Positions 1,106 through 6,972 of a stretch of 11,193 bases of DNA are shown here, piece after piece. The DNA is from a virus. The position numbers were made by a program, and so were the translations under genes. Every line of letters begins with the position of its first letter. Position 1 is the stretch's first letter. Where the stretch lies: the UHGV virus genome UHGV-1649846, one strand, 5' to 3'. Below the pieces are notes generated by a model. That model was not told the DNA's origin, searched no databases, and saw nothing but the letters and a program-made list of their open reading frames with translations.

Positions 1106-1395
1106 TGGTGAATTTACGTAAAGCGGCTAAAGGCCAGATGTGCCAGATCAGAATCCCTGGCTACTACAATCACAATCCCGAAACCTCTGTGCTGGCGCAT
1201 TACAGGCTGGCGGGGACGTGCGGAACAGCGACAAAACCACATGATATGCAGGCGGCGATAGCCTGTAGCTCATGCCACGATCTAATCGACGGGCGGGTAA
1301 AAACCAGCGATTACACCAAAGAAGAATTGCGCCTGATGCATGCTGAAGGGGTTTTTCGCACACAAGAAATCTGGAGAAAGAAAGGTCATTTATGA
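1105..1395 (+). CDS. YbcO-like DUF1364 protein (putative Zn/Cys-containing nuclease-like nin protein)
   Basis: 96-aa ORF. The N-terminus MVNLRKAAKGQMCQIRIPGYYNHNPETSVLAHYRL and the ACSSCHD motif resemble E. coli DLP12 YbcO as I recall it. It is coupled on both sides (TAATG upstream, ATGA at 1392-1395 downstream). Confidence 0.85.
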   Translation: MVNLRKAAKGQMCQIRIPGYYNHNPETSVLAHYRLAGTCGTATKPHDMQAAIACSSCHDLIDGRVKTSDYTKEELRLMHAEGVFRTQEIWRKKGHL

Positions 1396-1934
1396 TTTAC
1401 CCAACGAATACAGGAAAAAGCGGAGAACACCTTCGCCTCACCACGCTGGAAAGTGTCTGGATTCAGGGAAAACTACGTATGTGGGGGCGCTGGTCGTATA
1501 TTGGCGGTGGCAGGTCAGGGAATATGTTCAATCAGTTGTTGGCATCCAAAAAACTGACGAAAACAGCCATTAATGAAGCCCTGCGCAGAATGAAAAAAGC
1601 GGGAATAGAGAAAGCTGAGCTGGAAGCGTTTTTGCGAGAGATGATCAACGGCAAGCAAAAGAGCTGGCTGGCGCATTGTACTGATGCAGAGGCGTTATGT
1701 ATTGATCGAGTCATAAGTGAGGTGCTGGCAGAGCATCCAGGATTGATTTGCATTCTCCGGCAACGCTATGAAGGGCGGGGGATGACTAAGCGCAAAATGG
1801 CTGAATTGCTAAATGATGCACACCCAGAGTGGTGTTTTAGCACATGCGAAAAACGGATTGCTAATTGGTTAGCTGTTGCTGAGTATGCCCTACATATTCC
1901 CATGCGTGAATCATTTGCTGAGAAAATGGCTTGA
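1392..1934 (+). CDS. putative late-gene antiterminator, Q-like (DUF1133-type)
   Basis: 180-aa ORF with an ATGA overlap to the upstream gene. It is the last gene before a strong terminator and the lysis region. It contains a MWGRWS motif reminiscent of the ERWGAWA motif of 21/82-type Q proteins. The assignment rests on position and a weak motif recollection. Confidence 0.65.
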   Translation: MIYPTNTGKSGEHLRLTTLESVWIQGKLRMWGRWSYIGGGRSGNMFNQLLASKKLTKTAINEALRRMKKAGIEKAELEAFLREMINGKQKSWLAHCTDAEALCIDRVISEVLAEHPGLICILRQRYEGRGMTKRKMAELLNDAHPEWCFSTCEKRIANWLAVAEYALHIPMRESFAEKMA

Positions 1935-2386: not shown

Positions 2387-2709
2387 GGGCTGGTTTATTG
2401 TATGCCAAATGATTATTAAAAAGGTTGTGTTAATAACAAAATCCGAAATAATATGCCTGCATATTTTTATCTTGCTTATATTCTGCATATTGTGCATAGC
2501 AGGCTCATCCCTGCAATCAAAACTGTATGATGAGTATTTTTTGTTTTCCTTTTTTCCAGTCATCTGATGATGACCTGCTTCTTTTTAATCCGGATCGACA
2601 TCAGTTTTTTAAGATAATTCCTGCGAGTTATATGCATAAATGCCACAAACTCCGCATTTTATGTGGTTGGGAGTTGCCGGGCGCGCAGTGAGTTTGCTAA
2701 GAAAACTCC

Positions 2710-2814
2710 TGCATGGTGAATCCCCCTGTGCGGTGGGGTGATACCATTAACCTTTTCTGTCGCCGACAGGTATCACGAACATTTTGTTCACCGGGAGGCA
2801 CCCGGCACCATGTA
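2710..2814 (+). ncRNA. candidate structured RNA element (cloverleaf-like, non-canonical); function unknown
   Basis: GC-rich island in an AT-rich spacer. Closing helix catggtg 2712-2718 / caccatg 2806-2812. Inner helices: C-run 2722-2726 / G-run 2735-2738; gtgatacc 2738-2745 / ggtatcac 2769-2776; gaac 2777-2780 / gttc 2786-2789; ccggg 2791-2795 / cccgg 2801-2805. The helices abut with 0-1 nt junctions. There is no canonical T-loop, so it is not a normal tRNA. The stems are short and could arise by chance. Confidence 0.2.
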
Positions 2815-2918
2815 CTTCAATAGATTCTCTCCACATTATGGATATTCTTTCAGAATATCCCACGCAGACTTTGTGTAAATGTTAACAAATGTGCGTTTTA
2901 TTTGATCTGATTCGCTGT

Positions 2919-2948
2919 TTGAGCGTCCAAAACAACGGTATATATAAT
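2919..2948 (+). promoter_or_regulatory. putative sigma70 promoter of the lipoprotein moron
   Basis: -35 TTGAGC (2919-2924), 18-nt spacer, consensus -10 TATAAT (2943-2948), about 30 nt upstream of the ATG at 2978. Predicted by eye only. Confidence 0.4.
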
Positions 2949-2977
2949 CCTTTACTATATGACATATGTGAGGAAAA

Positions 2978-3406
2978 ATGGGTTTTCGTAGCGCATCAAT
3001 TCTTACGTTGATTATTAGTGGGATTATTATCGGGTGCACTGATGCTGTATCGACAAATTATCATGACCGTACATCATATTACTCCGATAAAGCAATAGAG
3101 ACACAGTATGTGAGTTCATCTGAACGTACTTCTGATGTTAGTGAGGATATCCGTCTGTATGCCCATCAAATCAAGAGCGCCATCGAAAAACAGTTCGGGG
3201 ATGCGAGTAAGTATTCAGGAAAAGAGTGTACACTGAGAATGCATATGGCCCCGAATGGCCTTCTACTGGAGGTTAAAAGAGAAAGTGGAGACCTCGATTT
3301 ATGTCGTGAAGCGATGAATGCGATAAAGAATGCTGATATACCTGCCCCCCCTTCGCCGGAAGTATATAAAGTATTTCAAAATGGGGTGCTGGATTTTAAA
3401 CCCTGA
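2978..3406 (+). CDS. lipoprotein with TolA C-terminal (domain III)-like domain
   Basis: 142-aa ATG ORF with SD GAGGA just upstream. Signal peptide plus lipobox MGFRSASILTLIISGIIIG|C. The C-terminal ~85 aa aligns without gaps to the C-terminus of E. coli TolA as I recall it (QIKSAIE, CTLR, APxGxLL, GDxxLC, IPxPPS, VYxVF, terminal LDFKP). Confidence 0.85.
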   Translation: MGFRSASILTLIISGIIIGCTDAVSTNYHDRTSYYSDKAIETQYVSSSERTSDVSEDIRLYAHQIKSAIEKQFGDASKYSGKECTLRMHMAPNGLLLEVKRESGDLDLCREAMNAIKNADIPAPPSPEVYKVFQNGVLDFKP

Positions 3407-3556
3407 TATTTATTGTTTTGTAATAAACGGTTTCGGCTTAGGTTTGTTCTGACACAGCTACGGCACTGAGCTAAATTTAGCGGATAGTCAGCTCTGAGCC
3501 AGTGGCGGACGTAACAACTACTATTGCTGAGATTTTAATGGATTGAGGAGCAAGAA

Positions 3557-3952
3557 GTGGGATTAAAGAAAATCGTTATGTTGACTTTTTGGGTCGGTTT
3601 TGTTGCGGGATGCACACCTTTACACCCTTCAGATTGCCACAAAACTACTGCTACAGGTAGTTGCAGTTCAGGACGCTGGGATGATCAGGATGAATGGGGG
3701 GCGCAAGCGCGGGGAATCAGAGCTGCAATTAATGCCAAACTTGATGAGCCGCATAACTGGAAAGGGAAAAAATGCAGGTTGCATATGGAATTCTCTCAGG
3801 ATGGCACGGCGTTAAAAATATCTACCAGTAACGGTGATAAAGCCTATTGCGAAGCGATAAAGTCCGCAGCTCATAAAGCCAAATTTCCGGCCTTCAACAA
3901 TCCGGAAGTCTACAGAGATTTTCAGAAATCTGGCTTTGACATGCGAGGTTAG
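3557..3952 (+). CDS. second, diverged TolA domain III-like lipoprotein
   Basis: 131-aa ORF with a GTG start 6 nt after SD GAGGAG. Signal peptide plus lipobox MGLKKIVMLTFWVGFVAG|C. The C-terminus keeps the TolA-III skeleton seen in the upstream paralogue (GKKCRL...DG...GDxxYCEA...A...P...EVYxxF) and both conserved Cys. Confidence 0.8.
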   Translation: MGLKKIVMLTFWVGFVAGCTPLHPSDCHKTTATGSCSSGRWDDQDEWGAQARGIRAAINAKLDEPHNWKGKKCRLHMEFSQDGTALKISTSNGDKAYCEAIKSAAHKAKFPAFNNPEVYRDFQKSGFDMRG

Positions 3953-4077
3953 CTCTTCAATTACTATATCTCATTCATAGCAAACTGACAGATTTGATGA
4001 TGTTCTATATACGAAACCTGTGATGTCAAGTCTGAGCTAATACAAATAAACATAATATCAGAGAAATACATTTTATT

Positions 4078-4101
4078 AGCTCGCTACGGCGAGCTTTTTA
4101 T
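4078..4101 (+). terminator. rho-independent terminator closing the lipoprotein moron
   Basis: agctcgc (4078-4084) / tacg / gcgagct (4089-4095), followed by ttttat. Confidence 0.7.
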
Positions 4102-4203
4102 ATTGCATCGTCTCCAGCATATATATCAATTAAGGCTCTGATTGATGTGTCTGAAAGCCTACACATAATAACTATGCCATCCGTTCCGTGCGGAGGTGAG
4201 GCT

Positions 4204-4419
4204 ATGAAATCCATGGACAAAATTTCAACAGGCATTGCCTACGGCACCTCCGCAGGCAGTGCTGGCTACTGGTTTTTACAGTTGCTCGATAGAGTAACTC
4301 CGTCACAGTGGGCTGCAATCGGTGTGCTGGGTAGTCTGGTATTTGGCCTGCTGACGTACCTGACAAACCTTTATTTCAAGATTAAAGAAGATAAGCGCAA
4401 GGCTGCGAGAGGTGAATAA
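4204..4419 (+). CDS. essD: class II holin / pinholin, phage 21 S-type (EssD family), dual-start
   Basis: SD GGAGGTGA lies 4 nt before the ATG at 4204. The 71-aa product [26 protein letters not shown]... is near-identical to E. coli EssD / phage 21 S as recalled. Met1-Lys-Ser-Met4 is the dual-start motif. The longer track ORF from GTG 4147 is not favoured. Confidence 0.9.
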
Positions 4420-4916
4420 TGCCTCCATCATTACGAAAAGTCGTTGCTGCTGCTATTGGTGGCGGAGCAATTGCTATAGCATCAGTGCTAATCACTGGCC
4501 CAAGTGGTAACGATGGTCTGGAAGGTGTCAGCTACATACCATACAAAGATATTGTTGGTGTATGGACTGTATGTCACGGGCATACAGGAAAAGACATCAT
4601 GCTCGGTAAAACGTATACCAAAGCAGAATGCAAAGCCCTCCTGAATAAAGACCTTGCCACGGTCGCCAGACAAATTAACCCGTACATCAAAGTCGATATA
4701 CCGGAAACAATGCGCGGCGCTCTTTACTCATTCGTTTACAACGTGGGTGCTGGCAATTTCAGAACATCGACGCTTCTTCGCAAAATAAACCAGGGCGATA
4801 TCAAAGGCGCATGTGATCAGCTACGTCGCTGGACATATGCTGGCGGTAAGCAATGGAAAGGTCTCATGACTCGTCGTGAGATTGAGCGTGAAATCTGTTT
4901 GTGGGGTCAGCAATGA
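4419..4916 (+). CDS. rrrD: SAR endolysin, phage 21 R-type lysozyme (GH24; RrrD family)
   Basis: 165-aa ORF with a TAATG overlap to the holin gene. The N-terminal Gly/Ala-rich signal-anchor-release segment is [18 protein letters not shown]. The E-x8-D-x5-T catalytic arrangement appears in [16 protein letters not shown]. Near-identical to K-12 RrrD as I recall it. Confidence 0.95.
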
Positions 4917-5377
4917 ACAGAGTAACCGCGATTATCTCCGCTCTGGTTATCTGCATCATCGTCTGCCTGTCATGGGCTGTTAATCATTACCGTGATAACG
5001 CCATTACCTACAAAGCCCAGCGCGACAAAAATGCCAGAGAACTGAAGCTGGCGAACGCGGCAATTACTGACATGCAGATGCGTCAGCGTGATGTTGCTGC
5101 GCTCGATGCAAAATACACGAAGGAGTTAGCTGATGCGAAAGCTGAAAATGATGCTCTGCGTGATGATGTTGCCGCTGGTCGTCGGCGGTTGCACATCAAA
5201 GCAGTCTGTCAGTCAGTGCGTGGAGCCACCACCGCCTCCGGCGTGGATAATGCAGCCTCCCCCCGACTGGCAGACACCGCTGAACGGGATTATTTCACCC
5301 TCCGGGAACGACTGGTAATGATGCAGGCCCAACTTGAAGGTGCTCAGCAATACATAACCGAGCAGTGTTTAAAGTAA
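4913..5377 (+). CDS. rzpR: i-spanin Rz (inner-membrane spanin subunit)
   Basis: ATGA overlap with the endolysin stop. N-terminal [23 protein letters not shown], then a coiled-coil-like Ala/Arg/Asp-rich periplasmic domain. RzpD/RzpR family. The symbol was chosen from synteny with trkG; the DLP12 allele name is rzpD. Confidence 0.9.
5133..5318 (+). CDS. rzoR: o-spanin Rz1 (outer-membrane lipoprotein), embedded out of frame within Rz
   Basis: 61-aa ORF wholly inside Rz in another frame. Lipobox LVVGG|C and a proline-rich mature part [21 protein letters not shown], which is the classic Rz1/RzoD/RzoR architecture. Confidence 0.9.
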
Positions 5378-5514
5378 AATCTTAACTACAATATGATTCA
5401 TTTTGATGATTGTTTCATAAGGAACAGTGAAGTAAGATCTAAGAGGAGTTAAATTTTATACAGTATAATCATAATATTGCAGCAAGGTGGTTATAATTGA
5501 AAGAATATTTAGAT

Positions 5515-6972
5515 ATGAATACATCTCATGTAAGAGTTGTTACTCATATGTGTGGGTTCCTAGTTTGGCTCTATAGTCTTTCAATGTTGCCACCAATGGT
5601 TGTAGCATTGTTTTATAAAGAAAAAAGCCTGTTCGTTTTCTTTATAACTTTCGTTATATTTTTTTGCATTGGTGGCGGAGCGTGGTATACAACTAAGAAA
5701 TCTGGCATTCAATTACGTACCCGTGATGGGTTTATTATAATTGTAATGTTTTGGATTTTGTTTTCTGTTATTAGTGCATTCCCTTTATGGATTGACTCAG
5801 AACTTAATTTAACGTTCATTGATGCTCTGTTTGAAGGGGTTTCTGGAATAACAACAACAGGAGCAACTGTAATTGATGATGTTAGTTCATTACCTCGGGC
5901 ATATTTGTACTATCGGTCACAGTTAAATTTTATAGGTGGTTTAGGAGTTATTGTTCTAGCGGTTGCTGTATTGCCATTATTGGGTATTGGTGGTGCAAAG
6001 CTTTATCAGTCAGAAATGCCGGGGCCATTTAAGGATGACAAACTCACTCCCCGCCTGGCCGATACGTCACGGACACTGTGGATAACTTATTCTTTATTAG
6101 GTATTGCTTGTATTGTCTGTTATAGACTTGCAGGAATGCCTTTGTTTGATGCTATTTGTCACGGGATTTCCACAGTTTCGCTTGGTGGTTTCTCAACTCA
6201 TAGCGAGAGTATCGGATATTTTAATAACTATTTGGTTGAGCTGGTGGCTGGTTCTTTTTCCCTGCTATCGGCTTTCAACTTCACTCTTTGGTATATTGTT
6301 ATTAGCAGGAAAACGATAAAACCTTTAATCAGAGATATTGAACTTCGTTTCTTTCTGTTAATAGCCTTAGGGGTGATCATTGTTACCTCTTTCCAGGTCT
6401 GGCATATAGGTATGTATGACTTGCATGGAAGTTTTATTCATTCGTTTTTTCTTGCCAGCTCCATGCTCACTGATAATGGTTTAGCTACGCAGGATTATGC
6501 AAGTTGGCCCACGCACACGATAGTGTTTTTGCTGTTGTCAAGTTTCTTTGGGGGATGTATAGGTTCAACTTGTGGTGGAATTAAGTCACTTCGATTTCTT
6601 ATACTTTTCAAACAAAGCAAACACGAGATAAATCAGCTTTCTCATCCCAGAGCGTTGTTGAGTGTAAATGTAGGAGGGAAGATAGTTACAGATCGTGTAA
6701 TGAGGTCTGTATGGAGTTTCTTTTTTCTTTATACTCTCTTCACGGTGTTTTTTATACTGGTGTTAAATGGTATGGGATATGATTTTCTTACATCATTTGC
6801 AACAGTGGCTGCATGTATTAATAATATGGGATTAGGTTTTGGGGCTACTGCATCGTCATTCGGAGTGCTTAATGACATTGCAAAATGCTTAATGTGCATA
6901 GCTATGATTCTTGGTCGCCTTGAAATTTATCCTGTTATTATATTGTTTTCAGGTTTTTTTTGGCGCTCCTAA
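5515..6972 (+). CDS. trkG: Trk-system K+ uptake membrane protein TrkG
   Basis: Polytopic membrane ORF. From the ATG at 5515 the product (MNTSHVRVVTHMCGFLVWLYSL..., 485 aa) matches the Rac-prophage TrkG of E. coli K-12 as recalled. The track ORF starts earlier at TTG 5497, which has a better SD (AAGGTGG, 6-nt spacing), so the true start is uncertain. The gene is visibly more AT-rich than its flanks. Confidence 0.95.
   Translation: MNTSHVRVVTHMCGFLVWLYSLSMLPPMVVALFYKEKSLFVFFITFVIFFCIGGGAWYTTKKSGIQLRTRDGFIIIVMFWILFSVISAFPLWIDSELNLTFIDALFEGVSGITTTGATVIDDVSSLPRAYLYYRSQLNFIGGLGVIVLAVAVLPLLGIGGAKLYQSEMPGPFKDDKLTPRLADTSRTLWITYSLLGIACIVCYRLAGMPLFDAICHGISTVSLGGFSTHSESIGYFNNYLVELVAGSFSLLSAFNFTLWYIVISRKTIKPLIRDIELRFFLLIALGVIIVTSFQVWHIGMYDLHGSFIHSFFLASSMLTDNGLATQDYASWPTHTIVFLLLSSFFGGCIGSTCGGIKSLRFLILFKQSKHEINQLSHPRALLSVNVGGKIVTDRVMRSVWSFFFLYTLFTVFFILVLNGMGYDFLTSFATVAACINNMGLGFGATASSFGVLNDIAKCLMCIAMILGRLEIYPVIILFSGFFWRS

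Follow-up and report, generated by a model that had tools for sequence, protein, structure and literature searches.

Small RNAs (sRNAs) of the STnc100 family, which also appear in the literature as EcOnc27/sRNA103 and PasD (PMC5331693, PMC8550237, PMC12711010, bioRxiv 10.64898/2026.05.13.724894), are encoded mostly in lambdoid prophages. EDL933 carries 11 copies, most of which are expressed without induction and one of which has been confirmed by Northern blot (PMC5331693). In enterohaemorrhagic Escherichia coli (EHEC), the Hfq-binding sRNA EcOnc27/sRNA103 corresponds to the copy downstream of stx2, and variants in this stx2-adjacent copy were among the features that predicted haemolytic uraemic syndrome in a machine-learning study (PMC12711010). 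PasD1 and PasD2 of enteropathogenic Escherichia coli (EPEC) are Hfq-dependent, with the stability of PasD requiring Hfq (PMC8550237), and PasD2 together with the 3′ untranslated region of yjbJ forms the most abundant CsrA-bound RNA pair in EPEC, accounting for 20% of the CsrA-bound chimeric reads (bioRxiv 10.64898/2026.08.12.744399). RNA of the family is also present in outer-membrane vesicles (PMC12370729); a review lists no function for it, and a literature search for the name ‘EcOnc13’ gave no match. Here we describe a GC-rich island in the virus genome UHGV-1649846, of which a stretch of 11,193 nucleotides (nt) was analysed (the window; positions refer to it unless a locus is named). The window comprises the late region of a lambdoid prophage; the island is almost certainly a copy of STnc100/PasD. 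Our favoured explanation, a family copy that is most likely non-autonomous and would head a longer RNA extending into a TolA-like moron, has as a whole a probability of roughly three in four, and its mechanistic part has even chances at best.

The assignment comes from a scan of the whole window against Rfam 15 at gathering thresholds, in which STnc100 (RF02076) was the sole match, extending over 2681..2867 on the plus strand and over model positions 1–206 with 83.4 bits (E = 4.5e-17), where the curated gathering score is 47 bits. The core alone (2698–2819) scored 68.6 bits. The closing helix and the first and last hairpins of the Rfam consensus structure also occur in the fold of the island, and the conserved blocks UGGUGAAUCCCCCnnnGCGGnGGGG (2714–2738) and CACCGGGAGGCACCCGGCACCA (2788–2809) close into the helices P1, P2 and P5 (table 1). 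With a Q-like gene upstream and a lysis cassette downstream, as identified by Pfam, the element belongs to the late operon. A preliminary description of this DNA had proposed a structured non-coding RNA that is located between Q and the lysis genes of a lambdoid prophage, and this is what the match and its context bear out. The same description had also considered a novel RNA, which the island is not, as its family is already catalogued and has repeatedly been studied; the label could be obtained from any Infernal/Rfam annotation and for the window constitutes a clean annotation. Possibly new, at the level of the family, are a covarying pseudoknot, a nested subtype and the occurrence of the 5′ domain at the head of mRNAs, including a chromosomal kdgM locus, from which concrete hypotheses on the role of this conserved domain can be drawn.

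Compared with other STnc100 copies, the one in the window shares the sequence blocks of P1, P2 and P5 and aligns to the full model above threshold. It also has the Q-to-lysis position and orientation of the copies in phage BP-4795, just downstream of stx1B (190.7 bits), and in phage mEp460 (114 bits), so that three phages, each with a different Q protein, show the same orientation between Q and lysis genes. It differs in its lower score of 83 bits, because an AT-rich hairpin without a U-tract replaces the terminator part, in a middle that is nested rather than pseudoknotted and in not having a strong promoter. PasD1 and PasD2 of EPEC strain E2348/69 occupy the same type of locus, i.e. after Q and before a SASA esterase or holin gene, the PasD RNA likewise begins with GCAUGGUGAAUCC, and PasD2 has kept the crossing helices A and B of the family (AUGAUC/GAUCAU inside GAGUUCUG/CAGAACUU). 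PasD falls below the Rfam STnc100 threshold, however, with its P2 loop and P5 being eroded, and in contrast to the window's copy it has a canonical terminator and gives a defined RNA of 172 nt. For PasD and STnc100 a common ancestor was proposed by Zhu, Shabalina and Storz.

Other small RNAs from the same prophage interval are clearly distinct. The anti-sRNAs AgvB/AsxR as well as PasA/PasC share this interval and co-occur with the family in Zhu et al., but they are short, unrelated in sequence and structure, and without a multi-helix 5′ domain. BP-4795 has an AgvB (anti-GcvB sRNA) match of 56.6 bits, with a threshold of 56 bits, on the opposite strand directly after the STnc100 terminator (locus L003, 4198–4257, minus strand). 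Lambdoid phages also produce short late-leader RNAs between pR′ and tR′, such as lambda 6S RNA and StxS. These, too, are small RNAs made from the Q-to-lysis interval without induction, but STnc100 is located downstream of stx in BP-4795 and in Stx2 phages, most of its copies have their own promoter, and the element in the window lies ~330–690 nt downstream of two terminator-like hairpins that follow Q. STnc100 is not the pR′ leader. The two hairpins (2017–2047 and 2361–2386) have T-runs, and a promoter-like AAGACA-18-TATAAT (2304–2333), which would give an RNA of ~45 nt, precedes the second one; they may represent the pR′/tR′ late leader and a duplicate or relic of it.

Fold and covariation of the conserved 5′ domain

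The preliminary description had noted a GC-rich block within an AT-rich spacer and had drawn a multi-helix junction in it. Both observations hold: the GC content is 52–54% across 2650–2800 and 28–39% in the flanks, and all helix coordinates match the sequence. The minimum free energy (MFE) structure of 2710–2814 calculated with ViennaRNA is the very same five-helix junction, with −42.9 kcal/mol as compared to a mean of −31.8 ± 3.7 for dinucleotide-shuffled controls, none of which was as stable (0 of 200; z = −3.02). For 2681–2867 the fold has −63.1 kcal/mol and a z-score of −3.62. P5 directly adjoins the 3′ strand of P1 with 0 nt in between, the P2 loop is conserved as CCUnnGCGGn, and helix A encloses a variable insert and a small hairpin (2758–2761 with 2765–2768). 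The mini-hairpin after helix A reads GGAC..GUUC in relatives, which is a one-sided change from A-U to G·U, and it is the nested-subtype counterpart of the family's helix B. There is also a 10-nt inverted repeat (TGCCGGGCGC/GCACCCGGCA, 2675–2684 and 2798–2807, 90% complementary) by which upstream DNA or RNA could pair with the 3′ strand of P5; as its upstream arm is not conserved in mEp460, this repeat is probably fortuitous.

Family members were collected by separate seeding on the two conserved blocks, which yielded 278 instances; the unique cores number 203, and the sources are 110 stretches of species-representative genomes and at least 120 IMG/VR viral contigs. For covariation, 70 non-redundant copies with the hypervariable insert removed were aligned by MAFFT on sequence alone, i.e. 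without fitting to structure. In this alignment, 78.6% of the cells are paired in the full structure versus 41–48% when partners are slid by 1–3 columns, and none of 500 shuffles reached this value. Double-sided compensatory changes were found in seven of the eight pairs of P1. P2 is 99.3% paired and two of its four pairs covary (C-G to U-A), whereas P5, with 99.7% pairing, shows zero double-sided changes, i.e. it is conserved as sequence and essentially invariant, and so is its 5-nt loop AGGCA in the 70 copies. CCU of the P2 loop and AGG of the P5 loop, between which a tertiary contact is conceivable, are both invariant; rare AAGCA variants of the P5 loop, as inspected by eye, come without a compensating change. 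In helices A and B, double-sided changes affect all pairs (6/6 and 8/8, respectively), with a covariation of 0.415 versus 0.21 when shuffled (0/500); their pairing of 59–60% is an underestimate, which is due to loop-length shifts in an unfitted alignment. When compared independently of register, cognate strands of helix A pair over 6.9 base pairs (bp) and non-cognate strands over 5.4 bp (p = 2e-17), and for helix B the values are 7.0 and 4.5 bp (p = 7e-31). Covariation, for which the preliminary description had suggested a comparison with related prophages, is found in the family for P1, A and B and in part for P2.

In the majority of the family, helices A and B cross each other, with the 3′ strand of helix A located inside the loop of hairpin B, which generates an H-type pseudoknot. 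By strict criteria this applies to at least 175 of the 203 unique cores (86%), with 95 distinct helix-A sequences, and includes BP-4795 (L003, 4009–4135), mEp460 (L002, 4020–4130) and PasD2 (L234, 3158–3255). An earlier test, which had compared the best helices in wide windows with mononucleotide shuffles, was too permissive, since 48% of the shuffles passed at 5 + 5 bp, and was replaced. The pseudoknot is a majority feature derived in this analysis and not a curated Rfam criterion: the Rfam consensus line shows hairpin B, with the pairing to A being absent, and Zhu et al. used RNAalifold, which is unable to represent pseudoknots.

A copy without a terminator and its possible roles

A typical member of the family starts transcription at P1 or a few bases from it and consists of the 5′ domain, a linker of 20–40 nt and a terminator, which results in a Hfq-dependent sRNA of ~170–200 nt. 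Across the family, σ70-like matches (at least 9/12) peak where the −10 element ends 1–5 nt before P1 (38 in this bin versus ~1–2 per bin elsewhere), TTGAC is enriched 31–45 nt upstream, and the 5′ end mapped for PasD2 coincides with the first base of its P1. The seed proposed for PasD2, UGUGAG, is located in the single-stranded linker between core and terminator and thereby outside of the core. Among 207 distinct copies, the first feature downstream is a terminator in 149 (72%), an open reading frame (ORF) without a terminator in 40 and neither of these in 18. After discounting starts inside P1, ~27 of the 40 ORF-first cases look real, corresponding to a leader layout in ~13% of the copies.

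Such a leader layout is not confined to phage genes. Ten copies with 79–85 bits, i.e. in the range of the window's copy, precede genes for porins of the KdgM family (PF06178) at a distance of 78–220 nt, and no terminator separates the two (loci L019, 6291–7342 on the minus strand, L021, L022, L023, L029, L031, L050, L072, L078 and L098). At L019 the porin gene is followed by that for a periplasmic pectate lyase, which is a chromosomal pectin-utilization neighbourhood and not a prophage. Since STnc100-type cores precede chromosomal kdgM genes, the family extends beyond prophage sRNA genes. Four loci with TolA-like genes share this core-to-ORF layout, with a gap of 164 nt.

In the window's copy, helix A closes in a nested manner and a mini-hairpin of 4–5 bp follows. 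This nested arrangement recurs in E. coli 2014C-4135, where a C-G pair of helix A has been replaced by U-A in a compensatory manner (GUGAUAUC/GAUAUCAC); there the copy has a canonical terminator and precedes the gene for a SASA esterase. Because of this compensatory change and the canonical terminator, the nested form is a genuine subtype that is found in E. coli, and not grounds for exclusion from the family. Terminator scans of the plus strand detected no terminator-like site within 2575–4078 and therefore none between the element and the morons; in the cmscan alignment, the terminator stem of the model falls on the AT-rich hairpin at 2840–2860, with the UUUU positions deleted. Identity to mEp460, which is 79.5% for 2690–2870 as a whole, jumps to 99.5% exactly at the invariant P5 block (table 1), with the 5′ part of the core being much more diverged, which indicates a mosaic or recombination joint inside the element. 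The conserved P5 block thus appears to have been the crossover point between phage modules, with the element marking their joint, and the terminator-less 3′ part travels with the TolA-like moron. E. coli L73 is 100% identical to a 231-nt query (2640–2870); in this strain, directly behind the element, the first TolA-like gene carries an IS66-family insertion, and IS3 disrupts the lysis cassette (L001, 6646–8978 and 10862–12024). The prophage is decaying in some hosts.

Upstream of P1, putative promoter hexamers in 2668–2703 align with TTGACT and TTGATG of related copies. This is also the region where the preliminary description had pointed to the repeated element aaactcc(t)gcat and to mutually exclusive, attenuator-like pairings with ggagtt. 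These motifs do exist (at 2647–2657 and 2703–2714, and at 2670–2675, respectively), but the pairings are at chance level, with z = −1.33 for 2640–2720 and 27 of 200 shuffles being as stable. In related copies, −35 hexamers align with the ggagtt arm, which therefore rather represents promoter DNA; the first copy of the repeat aligns with an unrelated upstream motif. The repeat finder reported no direct repeat of at least 10 nt, and AAACTCC, a 7-mer, has six occurrences in the window.

How could such a copy work? Its folded part, 2711–2813, is the conserved promoter-proximal 5′ domain of the family, with P1, P2, the variable helices A and B, and P5 stacked on P1, and recombination at the P5 block has provided mEp460-type downstream sequence in place of a terminator. 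With its terminator replaced in this way, the window's copy is most likely not an autonomous sRNA gene. In the scenario that we favour, it would be transcribed at the head of a longer RNA. In a lysogen, its own weak promoter would generate an RNA running into the TolA-like moron; after induction, the core would become part of the Q-dependent late transcript. In both situations, it could play the same role as at the head of sRNAs, i.e. that of a stable 5′-terminal fold and of a platform for binding proteins such as Hfq or CsrA. We infer both the transcription of this copy and the biochemical role of its domain, and the mechanistic part of the scenario, i.e. a transcribed head of a longer RNA that operates as 5′ fold or platform, remains tentative, with chances that are even at best.

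Several observations weigh against this scenario. The pseudoknot shared by 86% of the family is absent from the subtype to which the window's copy belongs. No σ70 match of at least 9/12 is found within 200 nt upstream of P1, and the copy is without a terminator, because of which it could be silent in lysogens or a mere remnant. A good promoter-like site at 2919–2948 sits between element and moron, and therefore the moron does not need the element as a leader. Expression as a discrete Hfq-dependent RNA is known only for other copies (EDL933, PasD and EcOnc27), the role as stabilizer or protein platform is conjectural for every member of the family, and the assignment of the PasD seed comes with weak MEME statistics in its source.

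Alternative explanations differ in how much of this they account for. That the element is now inert, i.e. a homology patch for lambdoid recombination that lost promoter and terminator in an exchange, would be in line with these losses, with a recombination joint located exactly at the invariant P5 block, with a helix B reduced to 4–5 bp and with the IS66 and IS3 insertions nearby in the decaying L73 prophage. Yet the helices P1, P2 and P5 have been preserved, shuffled sequences fold far less stably, a terminator is likewise missing from this arrangement in mEp460, whose 45.9-kb sequence was deposited as a phage genome, the nested subtype with its compensatory change occurs elsewhere with a canonical terminator, and terminator-less leader-type copies with covarying helices are conserved upstream of kdgM in several genera, all of which makes an inert remnant unlikely. 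Alternatively, the fold might not act in trans at all, but control how the mRNA of the TolA-like moron or the late transcript is expressed, kept stable or processed, for instance by way of a site for protein binding or for cleavage by an RNase. The uninterrupted path from the element into the moron and the leader layout at the four TolA-like and ten kdgM loci speak for such a cis-acting leader, and by analogy the stacking of a P1 of 7–8 bp on a P5 of 5 bp resembles the geometry of the tRNA acceptor/T minihelix, which is the minimal substrate of RNase P. However, 72% of the copies are self-terminated sRNA genes, trans partners are documented for the family, the moron has a separate promoter-like site, no alternative pairing joins the core to the ribosome-binding site of the moron, and the proposed attenuator pairings do not exceed chance, so that a leader that acts exclusively in cis is quite unlikely. 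A more far-reaching and likewise unlikely idea is that the ~105-nt core is an autonomous portable RNA domain, which by binding one specific factor or ligand acts in cis at the 5′ ends of sRNAs, moron mRNAs and kdgM operons; CsrA, Hfq and an RNase, for instance RNase P, would be candidates, but it may also be another one. This idea builds on the majority pseudoknot, the tRNA-like connectivity and the invariant nucleotides of the P2 loop and P5. If true, the core in the window would serve the TolA-like lysogenic-conversion genes as a regulatory leader, and a class of structured RNAs would be hidden inside an Rfam ‘sRNA’ entry.

Two further identities can be dealt with at the level of homology and coding potential. 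Class II tRNA geometry, recognized in the preliminary description, is real as far as order and spacing of helices and the flush stacking of P5 and P1 are concerned, and a degenerate or repurposed descendant of the tRNA genes located between Q and lysis genes in lambdoid phages would explain this connectivity: the closing helix of 7–8 bp is followed by two linker nucleotides (AA), by a hairpin of 4 bp whose loop has 10 nt and by a variable middle, and a final 5-bp hairpin adjoins the 3′ closing strand. Nevertheless, the acceptor/T-like geometry is a resemblance only. What should be the 7-nt TΨC loop is the invariant 5-nt AGGCA, the anticodon arm is absent, with the middle being a variable helix or, in most members, a pseudoknot, ARAGORN detected no tRNA or tmRNA gene in the window, and the Rfam scan gave no tRNA (RF00005), tmRNA or RNase P match even at E ≤ 10. 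Genuine tRNA genes do occur in the same interval of mEp460 (L002, 3043–3115 and 3219–3292), but are separate from its STnc100 copy, from which they lie 700–950 bp upstream. At the level of detectable homology, a tRNA origin can be regarded as effectively refuted, and it has become very improbable. Even less can be said for a small coding gene, i.e. the ORFs 2713–2823 (36 amino acids) or 2738–2878 (46 amino acids, with an AUG at 2810 that follows GGAGG 11 nt upstream). A hypothetical protein is annotated over the homologous region in some phage records and ribosome footprints are found on several EDL933 copies, but the NCBI pipeline annotates no gene there, and Pfam gave nothing meaningful for the four overlapping ORFs scanned, which also disposes of the possibility of a fragment of a known coding gene. 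Moreover, core lengths vary from 84 to 166 nt and fall into all three residue classes modulo 3, the hypervariable middle still keeps its base-pairing, and in most genera the 3′ strand of P1 is CACCACAC or CACCACAA, with no AUG. A protein-coding role is therefore exceedingly improbable.

Distribution and genomic context

The family is very common and adjoins stx and other cargo genes. Matches were found in 1,459 of 5,426 complete E. coli genomes, i.e. in about a quarter (461 with a coverage of 80% of the query or above, 447 with at least 99% identity), and in 88 phage records, mostly of Stx-converting phages; megablast against phage records yielded mEp460 only, and a sensitive mode was needed to find the Stx phages. 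Copies are also present in many other enterobacterial genera, often in tandem, and the 22-nt block CACCGGGAGGCACCCGGCACCA occurs exactly in 110 stretches of species-representative genomes. Loci often have 2–5 copies. E. coli 2014C-4135 has four tandem copies with a period of ~265 nt upstream of the SASA esterase gene (L236, 702–1681), and tandem same-strand arrays of 2–5 copies, in which variable middle and linker differ from copy to copy, are also found at L118, L166, L028, L043 and L046, much as in an array of paralogous sRNA genes. At the Enterobacter hormaechei locus L046, matches to IsrI, a Hfq-binding RNA, are interleaved with STnc100 copies (2583–2679 and 3281–3377), which points to mixed sRNA gene clusters.

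In the window, Pfam reveals the following gene order: DUF1367 and YbcO genes, the gene for the Q-like antiterminator, a 1-kb spacer, two TolA morons, the lysis genes and a TrkH-family gene. The features of the element and its surroundings are compiled in table 1.

Table 1. Structural elements of the STnc100 copy and features around it in UHGV-1649846.
Feature	Position	Strand	Sequence or pairing	Basis or remark
Q-like antiterminator gene (DUF1133 / Phage_antitermQ)	1392..1934	+		Pfam
Weak candidate promoter region (putative)	2668..2703	+	TTGGGA 2668–2673 or TTGCCG 2674–2679; GAGTTT 2691–2696 or TAAGAA 2698–2703	
P1 closing helix	2712–2718 with 2806–2812		CAUGGUG with CACCAUG	extendable to 2710/2814; MFE 2710–2718 with 2806–2814
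P1 5′ strand	2711..2718	+	GCAUGGUG; partner 2806–2813	MFE structure
P1 3′ strand	2806..2813	+	CACCAUGU	MFE structure; family alignment
P2 C-run/G-run hairpin	2721..2738	+	U2721·G2738, C2722-G2737, C2723-G2736, C2724-G2735	family-alignment register
Helix A	2738..2776	+	GUGAUACC 2738–2745 with GGUAUCAC 2769–2776	MFE structure
Mini-hairpin B, GAAC(A)/(U)GUUC	2777..2789	+	GAAC 2777–2780 with GUUC 2786–2789	MFE structure
P5 hairpin, CCGGG-AGGCA-CCCGG	2791..2805	+	CCGGG 2791–2795 with CCCGG 2801–2805	loop AGGCA
3′ linker and AT-rich hairpin	2814..2867	+	GGAUAUUC 2840–2847 with GAAUAUCC 2853–2860	no U-tract
mEp460-like segment	2787..3000	+		99.5% identity; megablast query positions 388–601 of 2400–3000
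Promoter-like site before moron	2919–2948	+	TTGAGC-18-TATAAT	
Two TolA C-terminal-domain genes	2978–3406 and 3557–3952	+		PF06519, 2.4e-23 and 1.3e-14
Terminator and T-run after moron, just before holin gene	4078–4095	+		terminator scan; moron cassette 2919..4103
Lysis cassette (P21-type holin, lysozyme, Rz)	4147–5377			Pfam

Directly after Rz follows the gene for the TrkH-family potassium transporter (5497–6972; PF02386, 5e-145). In the Rac prophage of E. coli K-12, trkG is arranged in this way, and this points to a Rac-like prophage in the window. Finally, in mEp460 the lysis genes are followed downstream by a thermoregulator leader of the cspA type (L002, 7280–7696).

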